14,909 bases of DNA from Promethearchaeia archaeon (GCA_029856155.1 JAHQWL010000095.1:1-14909), one strand, 5' to 3'; shown: positions 4,215 through 14,909, counted from the first letter of the stretch. The notes: generated by a model from the letters alone, not told the origin. Translations and numbers: made by a program.

Positions 4215-5486
4215 TTAAGTTTCAAGATTCTTAATTTGTGGTATTAAGGTACTTTTCCTGGTATCAAAACCAAATTTTAATACTTGGAAACTTAATATAA
4301 AGGGTACTAAACTGAATAAGCTTAATACTATCCCAAAAATATATGAATTTGGAAAAACAAGGAGAAATCCTCCAATTAATGGTCCTAAAATTTGAGAAAT
4401 GCTATCTATAGATGAGCTTATACCCATTATTTTACCTTGATTTCGGAAATCAACTGAACGACTAAGAAATCCCATGGTTATTCCTCTTGATGTAGCTCCT
4501 GAGAAACTAATAAAGAAGAGAATAATTACCAAATGCCAAGCTTGAGTTATTACTCCTAATAGGAAATATGCTAAAATATAACTTCCTAAACCTATCATTG
4601 CTGTATTTGGATCACCCAAGTAATTCCTGATTTTATTAAAGAAAAAGGCTCTAAATACAACTTGAAATATTCCCATTGATGAAAGGAGTAATCCAATAGC
4701 TTGTGCGTTTAAATTCAATCTAATATTCCCAAAAAGGCTGAAAGTAGTTTGAAATACTCCCGCAGCAATAGCTAAAAAAAGATATTGAACTAGTATAATC
4801 ATAGTTTGATAATTCTTCCATATTGAAGTTTTATTTCCCTCGATATTAATGGGTTTAGGTAAATCTTTATTATCAAATACTAAATTAATTTCTTTAGTAA
4901 ACTCATTATTACTATTTAATTTAATTGGTAATGTTTCTTTAAGAAATAAAGCAGTTAGTGTAATTGTTATACCTGCTAAAATGCTTGCTAAAATTCCGGG
5001 ACCCATAATTCCAAGAGGAGATAAAAAACCTCCTACTGCGGGTCCAATCAAAAATGCTAATGTGAAGGTAATACCAATATTAGTCATTTGCTTGGGTCTG
5101 TCATGAGGGGGGACAACGTCTCCAATTACGGCTTTTGAAATGGGAAATTGACCTCCAAATACTCCATCTACTATTCTTGCAATAAAGAGCATCTGTATAT
5201 TTTGTGAGAGTGCTAATATTATAAATCCTGCTAATGTTCCGAATTGTGAAATTAAGAGTAGAGGTTTCCTCCCATATTTATCACTTAGTTTTCCTAAAAT
5301 AGGTCCAAAGAAAAATCCAAAAATAGCGTTAGAACTTAACAAGAAACCGATAACTAAAGGAGAACTACTATATATCTCCATAAAAAATGGTAAAAAAGGC
5401 AATATGATACTAAAACCTAAAATATCAACAAATACTGCAAACCATAAAGGAATCAATCTTGGATATTTCAAGGAAAATCTCTTCAT
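4215..5486 (-). CDS. MFS transporter, TetA/DHA1-like
   Basis: About 12 TM segments, MFS motif A (GKLSDKYGRKP), ARIVDG and GPAVGG antiporter-type motif. Confidence 0.92.
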   Translation of the reverse strand: MKRFSLKYPRLIPLWFAVFVDILGFSIILPFLPFFMEIYSSSPLVIGFLLSSNAIFGFFFGPILGKLSDKYGRKPLLLISQFGTLAGFIILALSQNIQMLFIARIVDGVFGGQFPISKAVIGDVVPPHDRPKQMTNIGITFTLAFLIGPAVGGFLSPLGIMGPGILASILAGITITLTALFLKETLPIKLNSNNEFTKEINLVFDNKDLPKPINIEGNKTSIWKNYQTMIILVQYLFLAIAAGVFQTTFSLFGNIRLNLNAQAIGLLLSSMGIFQVVFRAFFFNKIRNYLGDPNTAMIGLGSYILAYFLLGVITQAWHLVIILFFISFSGATSRGITMGFLSRSVDFRNQGKIMGISSSIDSISQILGPLIGGFLLVFPNSYIFGIVLSLFSLVPFILSFQVLKFGFDTRKSTLIPQIKNLET

Positions 5487-9951: not shown

Positions 9952-10347
9952 ATGTCAGATGAAGAACTTAGGGATCAAATTAACAAAATAGCAGTAGAAA
10001 TTGAGAAAATTGAAGAGACTGCCAAGCAAAAAGAAGAATACGTTAAAAATAGAATTAATGAGGAATTTGATCCAAAAATTAATGAAATCGAATCAAAATT
10101 GCAGAGAGAACAAGCAATACTTGATGAAATTCTAAAAAGCATCGAAGAATTAGAAGTAAATAAGAAAGAAATGATACCTGTTGTCAAAGATTTAGAACAA
10201 AAATATAATGATTTGAAAAAAGAAAAGGAAAAATACATTAATGAAAAGTGTAAAGCGATTTCTAAAGAAAAGAAAGTCAAGTCGAAAGAAATTGACCGAA
10301 ATATTAAATTGTTAGAAAAAGAGTTAAAAACAAAAGAAAAGAAATAA
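9952..10347 (+). CDS. Coiled-coil hypothetical protein
   Basis: 131 aa, E/K-rich with heptad periodicity and almost no Gly or Pro. Confidence 0.8.
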   Translation: MSDEELRDQINKIAVEIEKIEETAKQKEEYVKNRINEEFDPKINEIESKLQREQAILDEILKSIEELEVNKKEMIPVVKDLEQKYNDLKKEKEKYINEKCKAISKEKKVKSKEIDRNIKLLEKELKTKEKK

Positions 10348-10922: not shown

Positions 10923-11666
10923 ATGAATGATCAATTTGGGACATATGGGGATGAATTTCAACAGAAGTCTAAATATATTAGAGAAAACTTACCACGACAT
11001 CAATTAGATTGGTTAAAAAAACCTAATTCCTTTAAGGGATATCCAGATGCGATAAAAACAATTAAATTACCCAATCTTGAATTCAATAAAGAAATAAGCT
11101 TCTGGCAAGTAATCTTAAATAGACAGTCTACTCGCAAGTTTAAAAATGAACCAATAACAATTTCACAACTTAGTCTTTTATTATTTGGAATTACTGGATT
11201 AACTCGAATTTTCCCTCAAGTTGCCTTTAGGACAGTACCGTCAGCGGGGGGTTTATACCCTATTGAGGTCTATCCCGTGGTAAATAATATTGAAAATCTT
11301 AATCAAGGGATTTATCATTACGACCTAGCTAAACATAGATTAGAATTATTGAAAGAAGGAGATTTTCGATTAGAGATTGCGAAAGGGTGTCTAGATCAAA
11401 AAATGGCATTTAATTCAGCAGTAGACTTTGTATGGACCGCGATTATAGAAAGATCCAGATGGAAATATCTCCAAAGATGTTATCGTTATATTTACATGGA
11501 TGCAGGTCACATTGGTCAGAATTTTTATTTAATTGCAGAGGCGTTAGGATTAGGAGCGTGCACTATTGGAGCTATTTATGATGATGAGATCAATAAGTTA
11601 TTAGATATTGATGGTACTCATGAAACAGCTATATATGTTGGTGTTATTGGAAAAAAAATCAAATGA
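10923..11666 (+). CDS. SagB/ThcOx-family FMN-dependent dehydrogenase (nitroreductase superfamily)
   Basis: Motifs RQSTRKF, RTVPSAGGLYPIEVY, GIYHY, YRYIYMDAGHIGQN and GACTIGAIYD. A TTTAAATA box about 20 nt upstream suggests a leaderless mRNA. Confidence 0.92.
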   Translation: MNDQFGTYGDEFQQKSKYIRENLPRHQLDWLKKPNSFKGYPDAIKTIKLPNLEFNKEISFWQVILNRQSTRKFKNEPITISQLSLLLFGITGLTRIFPQVAFRTVPSAGGLYPIEVYPVVNNIENLNQGIYHYDLAKHRLELLKEGDFRLEIAKGCLDQKMAFNSAVDFVWTAIIERSRWKYLQRCYRYIYMDAGHIGQNFYLIAEALGLGACTIGAIYDDEINKLLDIDGTHETAIYVGVIGKKIK

Positions 11667-11796
11667 AATATTCAGTATTAAACACTAATTTTTAGAGATA
11701 ATTTTTGGTTTACAGAAGGATTGGTATTGAAGCTTTTAATGCACTTTTTCCTTAAAATAATTAGTAAAATCATATAAATTTAAAATTCAAAGGAGA

Positions 11797-11922
11797 GTGT
11801 TAATATACCAGAATCTTTTAAAAGTTAAGGATATGCATAATCAGTTAAGATCTGATATTTGGATTTCACTTACATATAACTTAGATGAGATAGTTAATCA
11901 AGTTTTAGGTTATGATTCTTAA
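11797..11922 (+). CDS. Candidate micro-ORF of 29-41 aa (…YQNLLKVKDMHNQLRSDIWISLTYNLDEIVNQVLGYDS)
   Basis: Open frame after AGGAG (11791-11795). Possible starts are GTG 11797, ATA 11803 and ATG 11833. Stop TAA at 11920-11922. Confidence 0.4.
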   Translation: MLIYQNLLKVKDMHNQLRSDIWISLTYNLDEIVNQVLGYDS

Positions 11923-12056
11923 ATTATTATAGTTCTGTTTTATTTTTCTATATTTAACTACTTATTTGATATCATGAAAATTTTCAAATTTAGTTAATAT
12001 GAAACTACTATTTTTGTAAGATACGTTTGAATTATTGAAATATAAATAATCTAAAT

Positions 12057-12072
12057 TAGAAAGCTTTAAATA
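12057..12072 (+). promoter_or_regulatory. Putative archaeal BRE/TATA promoter of the lysine-rich peptide gene
   Basis: Purine-rich AGAAAG followed by TTTAAATA (12065-12072), about 75 nt before the ATG, leaving room for a short leader that contains the SD. Confidence 0.5.
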
Positions 12073-12127
12073 CAAATCTAACAATAAATAACAAAAATTT
12101 AATCATTAAATAAATTTAAAAAATTTT

Positions 12128-12133
12128 AAGGAG
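12128..12133 (+). promoter_or_regulatory. Shine-Dalgarno sequence
   Basis: AAGGAG, 12 nt before ATG 12146. Confidence 0.55.
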
Positions 12134-12145
12134 ACGTATTATATA

Positions 12146-12259
12146 ATGGCAAAAAAAAAAGCACCTAAGAAAAAGGCTCCCGCTAAAAAAGCAGGACCAA
12201 AGAAAAAGGCTCCCGCTAAAAAAGCAGGACCTAAGAAAAAGGCTCCCACTAAAAAATAG
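12146..12259 (+). CDS. 37-aa Lys/Ala/Pro-rich histone H1-tail-like basic peptide
   Basis: Translates as MAKKKAPKKKAPAKKAGPKKKAPAKKAGPKKKAPTKK* (18 K, 9 A, 6 P, no acidic residues). It has an SD, a TATA box and a downstream T-tract, and is GC-richer than its flanks. Confidence 0.8.
   Translation: MAKKKAPKKKAPAKKAGPKKKAPAKKAGPKKKAPTKK
12164..12256 (+). repeat. 33-bp in-frame tandem repeat, about 2.8 copies (PKKKAPAKKAG)
   Basis: Units are 12164-12196, 12197-12229 and 12230-12256 (partial). Only two substitutions: CCT/CCA (synonymous) and GCT/ACT. Confidence 0.95.
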
Positions 12260-12283
12260 ATATAACGTATTTCAGAATCCACA

Positions 12284-12308
12284 TTTTTTTTTAATTTTAT
12301 ATTTTTTT
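12284..12308 (+). terminator. Putative oligo-T terminator
   Basis: T9 at 12284-12292 followed by T4 and T7 tracts, starting about 25 nt after the peptide's stop codon. Confidence 0.55.
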
Positions 12309-12507
12309 AGATAAGGTTTCGCAAAGAATATAATTCATTTAGAGAGCACTCTTTATTAAAAAAAAATACATACTCCTAGTGAAGTTCAATAATTTAAAAA
12401 AAGTATGTTGCGTGTGAAATAAAATATATCGAAAGATAAAAATTAAAAATCATTAATATTATATAGATAAAAATAGAATAGATAAAAATTAGAAATTTCA
12501 AATATTT

Positions 12508-12891
12508 ATGATTAAATCAATCTTGGTTTGTGATTCTCAGGGATATCCCTTCTATTCTAAAAAATTTGATCAAAGTATAGGGGAGATAGATCCAACTATT
12601 TTTAGTGGTTTAATTTCTGCAATCGGAGCTATAGGGAAAGAATTATTTAAAGAGGAGATTGCTACGATATCGTACGGTGATAAATATGAAATAGCGATTA
12701 TAACCAAAGAATTGCTTGGGGATCCAAAGTCTATCTATTTCGTTTTTATAATTGAAGGAGAGTCTGATCTTAAATTAATGAAGCAGTTGAGTACAAATAT
12801 ATTTATAGAAACAAAGCATGTTTTAAGAGATCCAAATAATGCTAAGTTAGATATAAAGGAAAAAGTGGATAAAATTTTAGCAAATTTATGA
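12508..12891 (+). CDS. Longin/roadblock-like domain protein (Asgard-type eukaryotic signature protein)
   Basis: MIKSILVCDSQGYPFYSKKF...DPTIFSGLISAIGAIGKE matches the beta-beta-alpha start of longin-type domains, followed by three predicted strands and two helices. Confidence 0.72.
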   Translation: MIKSILVCDSQGYPFYSKKFDQSIGEIDPTIFSGLISAIGAIGKELFKEEIATISYGDKYEIAIITKELLGDPKSIYFVFIIEGESDLKLMKQLSTNIFIETKHVLRDPNNAKLDIKEKVDKILANL

Positions 12892-12941: not shown

Positions 12942-13172
12942 ATGAAGAAAAAAGAATTACAAAAATTTTTTAATCGGTTAGAAGAATTATTAGAAGTAAA
13001 TGGATGCAATGGACGAGATTTAACTAATGCGGAAATAATTTTAGAGGAAATGAGCATTCCTAAGGATGAACGAGAAGAATTCTTACAAAATTGCAGAAAT
13101 TCAGGTGGATTTTGTGATTGTGAAATTTTTTTAAATTCTGAAGAATATTTGAGAGAAATTTATAACAAATAA
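12942..13172 (+). CDS. DUF2695 domain protein
   Basis: GC…L motif and GGFCDCEIFLN signature in 76 aa. Confidence 0.85.
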   Translation: MKKKELQKFFNRLEELLEVNGCNGRDLTNAEIILEEMSIPKDEREEFLQNCRNSGGFCDCEIFLNSEEYLREIYNK

Positions 13173-13203: not shown

Positions 13204-14094
13204 TTAGAACCATTTAACTTTAAGAGATTTTCGCGCTGGTATTCTGTAATAGCGTGCTTTTGGATACCCTATGGCTAATGTGTATCCCGCAATATGCTTT
13301 AATGGAAGTTTTACAATTTTTCCGACGGGTCTAAATTGATTAAAAAAAGCTGTAATATATCCAAGTGAACATGTGCCTAAACCCAAGGTTTCAGCTGCTA
13401 ACATAATATGACAAGCTGCTAATGTACAATTTTCTATTAGAGTTAAGGCATCTTGAGGGGAATGAATAATAATAATTTCAGTGTTCCAACGCCAGACTTC
13501 TATCCCCGATTTAATTCTTTTTAAAGCTCGTTTAAATGAAGGGAGGATTTCTTCAATTTTTTTTATCATAGCGGGTGGAAATGATGTTTCTAAGGTTTTC
13601 TTACCCTGAGGATCTTCAAATGTCTTAACAAGGTTCGTGACTTGATTTGTACATTCTTCAGATAATTTTTTTAGCGTTTCTCGATCCTTTACAACTGTAA
13701 AATGGACATTTTCTTGATTATGCCCTGTAGGCGAATATTTACCAGCAACCTCCAGAATCTTTTCAAGTAATTCTTTTGGAACCGGTTTATCTTTAAATTG
13801 TCTTCGAGATCTTCTAGTTTTAAATAAATTCACCAGTGAATCAAATGAGGGTAAATCTTCTTTAGCGGGAACATTTTTGAGAGTTTCTTCTTTATGAACT
13901 TTAAGTATTATAGCATTAACCGGGCAAACCGCAACACACTTCCCACACTCAATGCAAAATTCTTCCATTGTTTCATCAAACATTAATTCATCTGACTCAA
14001 AATAATAAAAATGACACTCGTCAGCACATGCTTTGCATTTTGTACAAGAATCCATGTCTATAATAACTTTTGAATTTTCTAACACCATAATCAT
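13204..14094 (-). CDS. Nitroreductase family protein with N-terminal 2x[4Fe-4S] ferredoxin domain
   Basis: CTKCKACADEC and CIECGKCVAVCP, then RRSRRQF, SPTGHNQ, LGLGTC and IGYP. AGGTGG SD upstream; the true start may be the ATG at 14088. Confidence 0.93.
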   Translation of the reverse strand: MIMVLENSKVIIDMDSCTKCKACADECHFYYFESDELMFDETMEEFCIECGKCVAVCPVNAIILKVHKEETLKNVPAKEDLPSFDSLVNLFKTRRSRRQFKDKPVPKELLEKILEVAGKYSPTGHNQENVHFTVVKDRETLKKLSEECTNQVTNLVKTFEDPQGKKTLETSFPPAMIKKIEEILPSFKRALKRIKSGIEVWRWNTEIIIIHSPQDALTLIENCTLAACHIMLAAETLGLGTCSLGYITAFFNQFRPVGKIVKLPLKHIAGYTLAIGYPKARYYRIPARKSLKVKWF

Positions 14095-14281
14095 ATTCCA
14101 CCTATTTATACACTAATTTAAACAATATGTACAATCTTTATTAATGATTTCTGAACAATTTCTATAAGAATGTTCTTGAACTTAAAAGGGGAAATTCAGA
14201 CTTTTAGCTATTATTTAAATATATATCAAAATATGGTTTAATTATTTATAGTCATTTATATAAAATTTTATTAGATTGAAA

Positions 14282-14909
14282 ATGAATGTAAACAATATTA
14301 AAGGGCGCCCCGAATTCAGCTCGAGTCAATTTTTAGGATATATATTTTGGAAACAATTAGATGGATTTCATCTGAGATGGACTTCAAAAGGCAAAAAAGT
14401 ATATATTTTTCAAGGAAAGATAATTAGCGAGTCTAAATTAAAATTAACAAAAAGGATCAGATCAGAGACTGCTGAAACCATAAATCAAATTAATGAAAAC
14501 TCCATTGAATGGAATACTAGTGAACAAAATGAATTAGATGGATTAGATTTCCTTACACCAGGAAATTTCACAATAGAGCTAAGAATAAACAAGAAAAAAG
14601 TCAAGACTAAAAATATTTTTTTGGGACCTCAAATGGAGCAACCGGAGAAAAATCCCTTTATTATAAGCCAAATTACTGTCGAAAAGGAAATAAAAATAGA
14701 TAAGAAGAAAATAAAAAAAGAAACTAAATTTAAAAAAGAAGAAGAGATAGAAGTACTTGTATATAGAACCGAACCAGAACCTATATATGAGCCCGAACCA
14801 GAACCTGTGTATGAACCCGAACCAGAACCAGTATATGAGCCTGAACCAGAACCTGTGTATGAGCCCGAACCAGAACCAGTATATGAACCCGAACCAGAAC
14901 CTATATATG
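14282..14909 (+). CDS. Hypothetical protein (3'-truncated): globular N-domain, Lys/Glu linker and EPEP[V/I]YEP repeats
   Basis: Uninterrupted 209-codon frame from ATG 14282 (MNVNNIKGRPEF...GYIFWKQLDGFHLRWT...DGLDF...IFLGP...NPF...) to the window end. TTTATATA lies about 20 nt upstream. Absent from the ORF track, presumably because no stop is reached. Confidence 0.88.
   Translation, partial: MNVNNIKGRPEFSSSQFLGYIFWKQLDGFHLRWTSKGKKVYIFQGKIISESKLKLTKRIRSETAETINQINENSIEWNTSEQNELDGLDFLTPGNFTIELRINKKKVKTKNIFLGPQMEQPEKNPFIISQITVEKEIKIDKKKIKKETKFKKEEEIEVLVYRTEPEPIYEPEPEPVYEPEPEPVYEPEPEPVYEPEPEPVYEPEPEPIY
14771..14909 (+). repeat. 24-bp in-frame tandem repeat, 5 full copies plus 1 partial, running off the window
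   Basis: Consensus GAACCAGAACCWRTRTATGARCCY. Units start at 14771, 14795, 14819, 14843, 14867 and 14891. Confidence 0.95.

Follow-up and report, generated by a model that had tools for sequence, protein, structure and literature searches.

The window, by which we mean the whole 14,909-nucleotide stretch of DNA analysed here, is contig C95 of a 4.10-Mb assembly (30% GC, 104 contigs, 97% complete) from a member of Promethearchaeia, the Loki-type class within the Asgard phylum. Between a nitroreductase gene (10923-11666) and a gene for a 127-aa protein with no Pfam match (12508-12891, + strand), the ORF track has a gap of 841 bp (11667-12507), which holds a small transcription unit on the same strand as the 127-aa gene, the next one downstream. 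The TATA box TTTAAATA with a BRE-like AGAAAGC before it (together 12058-12072, read directly from the + strand) is located ~80 nt 5' of the start codon, and an A-rich 5' leader of ~50 nt would extend from 12097 to 12145 (+ strand) given the TATA-ATG spacing, its start being an unmapped estimate assumed to lie ~25 nt past the TATA box. The Shine-Dalgarno (SD) sequence AAGGAGACGTA at 12128-12138 (+ strand) precedes an open reading frame of 37 codons plus TAG, read from the + strand (12146-12259, with ATG at 12146 and TAG at 12257-12259), and an oligo-T terminator region, likewise read directly from that strand, occupies 12284-12308, with nine T at 12284-12292 and seven at 12302-12308. The initial annotation of this DNA had described such a mini transcription unit, a 37-aa product with a charge of about +18 and a gap of roughly 840 bp, and all of these are found where it had placed them.

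The predicted peptide (~3.8 kDa) consists of 18 Lys, 9 Ala, 6 Pro, 2 Gly, 1 Thr and 1 Met, with neither Asp nor Glu, for a net charge of about +18. In its coding sequence, Tandem Repeats Finder detects a 33-nt unit that is present in 3.2 copies and translates to KKAGPKKKAPA (12152-12256, + strand; period 33, 91% matches, score 175), and this is the only ORF of K/A/P polycation composition in the source genome. The product is expected to be an intrinsically disordered polycation; it has no winged-helix or other globular domain, and its 37 residues are too few for the ~74-residue fold. We dismissed a structured RNA gene at this position, as the region of the peptide gene has no Rfam match and its RNA fold is not significant (z -1.2).

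Close relatives of the 127-aa protein are encoded on contigs labelled as Promethearchaeota, Promethearchaeia, Hermod-, Hod- or Thorarchaeota MAGs, including the closed chromosome CP070831.1, and the same small ORF lies upstream at about half of the relatives' 127-aa-gene loci. Since the contigs of these relatives are Asgard and carry the same ORF at those loci, we take the window to be an Asgard contig and the ORF not to be a contaminant, in agreement with the origin initially proposed; the syntenic contigs belong to Promethearchaeota and Promethearchaeia MAGs, among them CP070831.1, and a non-archaeal contig is excluded. Genes neighbouring the peptide gene encode nitroreductases, the 127-aa protein, DUF2695, Ras-like GTPases and a ZIP transporter, none of them linked to chromatin, and at the loci examined neither ribosomal nor polyphosphate genes stand beside it. 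The identity, distance (about 250 nt to 2.9 kb) and orientation of the downstream gene vary between orthologous loci, and synteny is only partial with the DUF2695 gene and with the 127-aa gene, which the initial annotation had called longin and which has no Pfam match. Genes homologous to those that the window carries at 9952-10347, 12942-13172 and 13204-14094 nevertheless lie near the peptide gene in other genera, a residual cross-genus synteny that favours a single origin followed by rearrangement.

Two further features of the neighbourhood deserve mention in their own right. Genes for Ras-family small GTPases are found ~0.3-3 kb from the peptide gene at seven of ten loci examined in other genomes (L158-L167), a proximity that may just mirror the abundance of these GTPases in Asgard genomes. 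An ORF at 14276-14908 (+ strand), 2 kb from the polycation gene and running past the end of the window, has a basic middle and an acidic tandem repeat, (EPEPEPVY)n, at its end, with a weak Pfam match to the trypanosome procyclin repeat.

Database searches with the peptide

The gene had been called unannotated, which holds for a 15-billion-protein collection, where exact look-up finds neither the peptide nor five of its orthologues, but not for the ESM Atlas, which contains the exact peptide as an unnamed hypothetical protein. Its nearest clusters there are unnamed hypothetical proteins of 30-38 aa, and the nearest named cluster (score 0.92) carries the bacterial H1-like family HC2 on 17% of its members, which is only a lead. 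In Pfam, the peptide has no match up to E 10, including to PF07382, PF00808 and the ribosomal families; NCBIfam returned nothing significant (Rv3852_fam reached only 12.3 bits, at E 0.18, where the cut-off is 100), nor did a PDB sequence search. A profile search of 1.84 billion representatives gave zero matches, an outcome that says nothing for a low-complexity profile of 33 columns, and a word-index protein search with a 40-aa family member gave no scored match, low complexity being what defeats HMMER. PF00538 has no match in the source genome, and the control genomes for the same search were equally silent.

Distribution of the peptide gene

Intact orthologues occur in at least 48 of the 135 genomes of the source's Asgard family, across four genera, in answer to the question of whether relatives carry homologous ORFs. 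Genome HMM searches were insensitive, one of them missing the source genome's own copy, and we relied on DNA patterns instead; a census by protein, HMM and DNA-pattern searches together catalogued 47 copies in 46 of the 135 genomes, beyond which lie a variant in G013 and a copy at a contig end in G018. The latter (G018:C5:1-44, L170) is severed by the end of its contig, which suggests that the repeat may break assemblies and that counts of absence are upper bounds. An SD-plus-start pattern recovered intact copies from 12 further low-GC contigs in JGI metagenomes.

The orthologous ORFs span 27-38 codons and begin with MAKK, except for MGKK in one tandem duplicate. All are built of tandem KK(K)AP(A)-type units without acidic, aromatic, Cys or His residues, their net charge ranges from +12 to +19, and residue usage over the 47 copies is 48.5% K, 26.5% A and 17% P, with Arg at ~0.3% and acidic residues at zero. 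The signals around the ORF are conserved with it: the motif AGAAAnCTTTAAA lies at an equal distance from the start in orthologues, a TATA-like heptamer stands 70-100 nt 5' of the start in 36 of the 47 copies, an SD-like core lies between -16 and -4 in 43, and a tract of at least six T follows within 60 nt of the stop codon in 43, while the SD sequence of the window is almost invariant in genus g1. Averaged over the 47 copies, GC content is 39% in the coding sequence versus 16-18% in the flanks. In one genome, two tandem peptide genes lie ~200 bp apart (L059, G096:C29, ~4517-4609 and ~4823-4933), each with a TATA-like element of its own, and the second copy is divergent (MGKKGPQRKPAPKKK...).

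A 400-genome sample of the phylum included 265 Asgard genomes from outside the source family, and by the start pattern described below none of these contains the peptide gene. That pattern matched 82 of 134 other family genomes versus one of the 265 outside the family, and the single outside match, in a sister-family genome of 6.0 Mb, is to a tailed histone; a generic KKAP...KKAP pattern had no match in five sister-family genomes. The cultured Loki strains appear to belong to a sister family in which the peptide gene was not found. Within the genus, DNA patterns found no copy in some congeners that are 97-99% complete (G003, G012, G078), and since none turned up in such near-complete genomes we regard the gene as dispensable. 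So far as our searches reached, the gene appears to be accessory and restricted to one Loki-type family.

Coding status and selection

Among 14 distinct 37-codon orthologues of the same genus, dN/dS in the sense frame is 0.054 at a dS of ~1.1, and of the 37 columns for each codon position, 32 third, 11 first and 15 second positions vary. The antisense frame that shares third positions gives a dN/dS of 0.10, and the remaining frames exceed 2 or are closed. We dismissed the corresponding antisense ORF (12139-12282), which is held open by base composition, has no conserved start signals and shows the higher dN/dS. The reading frame is intact in all 47 catalogued copies and its length shifts only by whole codons, so that frame-breaking variants of the repeat, which would have spoken against a gene, are absent from the catalogue. 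Its unique composition, its GC contrast with the flanks and the intact copies in many species indicate a coding gene and not a chance ORF. We conclude from these sequence comparisons that the ORF represents a protein-coding gene under purifying selection on composition and periodicity, and that annotation mostly overlooks it; the orthologues and their conserved flanking signals bear out the initial view of a genuine, conserved, stand-alone K/A/P polycation gene that gene callers tend to miss.

A recurrent variant of the gene is shortened at its 3' end. In four genomic copies (L005, L009, L049, L052) and four metagenome loci (L185, L186, L190, L192), a Lys codon at position 32 or 33 has become TAA, which cuts the product to 31-32 aa, and the former last repeat and stop codon are still legible 3' of the change. 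It occurs in species with differing upstream sequence types and may therefore have arisen repeatedly.

A tailed histone shares the start motif of the peptide

We scanned the 135 family genomes with a start pattern, ATGGCNAARAAR(NNN)GCNCCNNNNAARAAR, which matched in 83 of them, including the source genome; a reversed control matched in none. The matching genes fall into only three classes, namely the peptides, a histone of 76-94 aa, and AAA_5 ATPases with a K/P-rich N-terminus. The histone class has a core ...YIAKAPIRRLMKKEGA...KRKRVTAADIR... and, within it, the histone-fold core APIRRLM...RKRVT. Its representative in the source genome (G000:C11:36320-36553, equivalent to L080:1501-1734) encodes 77 aa, matches PF00808 at E 1e-9 and is a tailed histone of the Loki HLoB type. 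Of the six histone-fold genes in that genome, only this one carries a K/A/P tail (MAKKKAPAKK-SEGY), and its tail motif MAKKKAPAKK is identical to the peptide's own, M-A-K-K-(K)-A-P-x-K-K. The likeness comprises ~10 low-complexity residues and could reflect convergence or shared composition.

In relatives, the histone tail is extended by the same repeat units, reaching 24 aa in L150 for example; because the tail lengthens by these units, its coding DNA behaves like the peptide gene. Members of one sub-lineage within genus g22 have tails with the sequence MAKKKPAPKAKK or MAKKKAAPKAKK, and the peptides of these genomes are built of KKKPAP and KKKAAP units. The fraction of tail 5-mers recurring in the peptide of the same genome is 0.30 versus 0.254 when shuffled, with 68 of 5000 shuffles reaching 0.30; as the test is crude and the relatives are not independent, we regard this co-variation as only suggestive. 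We dismissed a tie between histone tail length and presence of the peptide gene, the median tail being 14 aa in genomes with it and 13 aa in those without.

The histone genes of the source genome have the same leader and promoter layout as the peptide gene. When the 110 nt upstream of the peptide gene were compared with the upstream regions of 447 SD-bearing genes, those of histone genes ranked 9, 14, 17 and 29 (four of five scored), and alignments of the peptide and histone promoters showed an A-rich leader in common but no demonstrable homology. The upstream region of the tailed histone, with its TATA box, leader and SD sequence AGTGGAGGAAT, is nearly invariant across the family, and this histone is older and more widespread than the peptide gene.

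The third class, confined to a small number of genomes from other genera, comprises AAA_5/MoxR-type ATPases 420-450 aa long in which a MAKKKAPAKK start is followed by 50-100 K/P-rich residues (L067:1501-2850 in G069, L063:10-1272 in G052, L136:151-601 in G125). The source genome contains no orthologue at E 1e-20, and we dismissed a fusion between ATPase and peptide gene, there being no sign of one and the ATPase upstream region being unlike that of the peptide gene. Separately, several tailed-histone ORFs are truncated or altered after 18-70 residues (L082 in G083, L115 in G104, L106 in G095, L133 in G122, L093 in G067, L094 in G075), possibly through frameshift, pseudogene formation or assembly error, and some keep little beyond the tail. 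The source genome also encodes five SIR2 paralogues (C8:25147-25674, C56:22248-22778, C26:162700-163233, C22:15034-15549, C52:110163-110678).

Recent work provides a context for these tails. In cultured Loki strains, HLoB is abundant and located on the nucleoid, and its tail lysines are methylated and acetylated (Cho et al., 2026 preprint, bioRxiv 10.64898/2026.07.02.735847); a modified tail peptide, AKKKTPAKK, was detected for L. ossiferum HLoB.2, and histone tails were substrates of Asgard acetyltransferases (HATs) and SIR2 enzymes, including deacetylation by SIR2 (bioRxiv 10.64898/2026.07.02.735847). A 2024 review describes short lysine-rich tails on some Asgard histones, with no discernible homology to eukaryotic tails, and gives H1 a separate history (PMC10919886). 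Neither of these sources (PMC10919886; bioRxiv 10.64898/2026.07.02.735847), nor the other literature that we searched, makes any reference to a tail-like peptide standing alone or to a linker histone in archaea.

Discussion

Our analysis points to a small Asgard gene that codes for nothing but the tail motif of a histone. We infer that the gene would be transcribed and translated, and that the peptide would bind nucleic acid, act in chromatin and be modified there. The reading that we favour, with moderate confidence, is that it would diffuse as a disordered polycation and bind to DNA or chromatin much as a free histone tail might. Chromatin is the likeliest target because the peptide's motif is identical to the tail of an abundant, DNA-bound histone. 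Binding would be purely electrostatic, to linker or otherwise exposed DNA or to the surface of histone-DNA superhelices, and by neutralising phosphate charge the peptide would favour compaction or bridging. It would in effect supply a histone tail in trans, working as protamines or the C-terminal domain of H1 do while being homologous to neither.

Small polycations of this kind have precedents elsewhere. Protamines and Coxiella ScvA are tiny, foldless, basic peptides that condense DNA and are thought to do so by neutralising charge. Like them, the archaeal peptide belongs among stand-alone basic peptides of about 30-50 residues without a fold; unlike it, they are rich in Arg (or in Arg and Gln) and stage-specific, whereas the archaeal peptide is based on Lys. 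Kinetoplastid H1, which lacks the globular domain, illustrates that a polycation consisting of a tail only can act as a chromatin protein.

Comparison with HLoB itself yields likenesses at the level of both protein and gene. The tails share the start and repeat motif of the peptide, are rich in Lys and presumably disordered, and change in length by whole K/A/P units; HLoB and peptide genes alike are preceded by a TATA box at about -85, an A-rich leader and an SD site. In contrast to HLoB, the peptide has no histone fold (no PF00808 match) and exceeds the usual tail of 10-13 aa two- to threefold in length. Its gene has a locus and a promoter of its own and another SD sequence, and it occurs in only about one third of the genomes of the family, across which the tailed histone is widespread. 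As the peptide copies the tail motif, it could be a substrate of, or competitor for, the lysine acetyl- and methyltransferases and the sirtuins that act on tails. More tentatively, and as a possibility to which we attach a good deal less weight, it may be a trans-acting copy of the HLoB tail that lies on histone-DNA fibres and is written and erased by the tail's own lysine-modifying enzymes.

Polycations make no distinction between DNA and RNA, and the peptide might instead bind the ribosome or RNA, neutralising rRNA or serving as an RNA chaperone in the manner of eL41, bacterial THX or the K/A/P-rich extensions of eukaryotic ribosomal proteins. Its size, charge and strong translation signals would suit a very small ribosomal protein, and Asgard rRNAs bear large expansion segments. 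The patchy distribution within a genus would, however, be unusual for a ribosomal component, the gene has no ribosomal-gene context and its product no ribosomal family in Pfam even at E 10, and the motif that it shares is that of a histone tail; we consider this alternative unlikely, yet worth keeping in view.

A polyanion other than nucleic acid, such as the polyphosphate of granules, is a target that we consider distinctly improbable. Its model is Pseudomonas AlgP, a K/A/P-repeat protein that reportedly associates with polyphosphate granules (PMC9239181), and the composition of the archaeal peptide is of the same kind; against it stand the absence of polyphosphate genes nearby and the motif held in common with a DNA-bound histone tail. 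AlgP is one of several bacterial proteins, with Chlamydia Hc2 (PF07382), the mycobacterial HupB tail and Rv3852, that resemble the peptide in their PAKK/KKAP-type repeats. These proteins differ from it in their length, from 100 to over 300 aa, or in their fusion to folded domains, and none gave a significant match to the peptide; presumably, they and the peptide arose independently.

Tandem repeats of this sort readily expand and contract as DNA, and some assemblies contain truncated histone ORFs with only a tail (L082, L115), so the peptide gene might be a non-functional by-product, either an expanded microsatellite or the decaying 5' fragment of a histone gene. A dN/dS of 0.05 at saturated dS, 47 intact frames among 47 copies and signals conserved across four genera weigh heavily against such an origin. 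Export as an antimicrobial-type cationic peptide finds as little favour, there being neither a signal peptide nor a hydrophobic segment in the product and no export gene in the neighbourhood, and we judge this pair of explanations very unlikely.

The initial annotation had likened the peptide to the tail of histone H1 and suggested that it might bear on the origin of H1. The first half of that comparison survives as a matter of composition: like the H1 C-terminal domain, the peptide is rich in K, A and P (in percentages resembling those of that domain), strongly positive and expected to be disordered. The second half does not. The peptide has no winged-helix domain (PF00538) or detectable homology to H1, is much shorter, and has no match in Pfam, NCBIfam or the PDB, its nearest relative being a histone tail; the Asgard group nearest to eukaryotes is a different lineage from its own, and copies were found nowhere else in Asgard, in none of the 265 genomes sampled outside the family. 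Low-complexity similarity is unable to establish homology, and the HC2-bearing cluster of the ESM Atlas, which might otherwise be cited in favour, is only a lead. Judged by its sequence, the peptide is not a member of the H1 family, and we find a true homologue or precursor of the linker histone's C-terminal domain scarcely credible; given its narrow range, confined to one Loki-type family as far as our searches reached, a role in H1 ancestry is unlikely. Equally hard to credit is a cis-regulatory leader peptide or uORF in which pausing at Lys and Pro codons controls whether the T tract is read through into the gene behind it. In favour of this are a short ORF directly before an oligo-T terminator and a next gene on the same strand in the window; against it count the variable downstream gene, distance and orientation, the strong purifying selection on the peptide and its own promoter.

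Eukaryotic chromatin is marked out by its histone tails and linker histones. A conserved gene for the tail motif only, enlarged about threefold, would add a new component to the chromatin of Asgard archaea, and since trypsin cuts after every lysine, proteomics based on it should overlook the product. In this lineage K/A/P tail modules pass from gene to gene, appearing on a histone, on an AAA_5 ATPase and as a free peptide, which bears on the origins of tails. The finding probably has no bearing on H1 ancestry itself. The peptide can be synthesised, and its action in trans on archaeal hypernucleosomes, as well as the recognition of the motif by acetyltransferases and sirtuins without an accompanying fold, are thus addressable. 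If the peptide does act as a free HLoB tail in trans, it would constitute a tunable "soluble tail", a linker-like layer of chromatin control, and would offer a living example of the modular step between free polycation and fused tail, in either direction, by which histones may gain or shed their tails.
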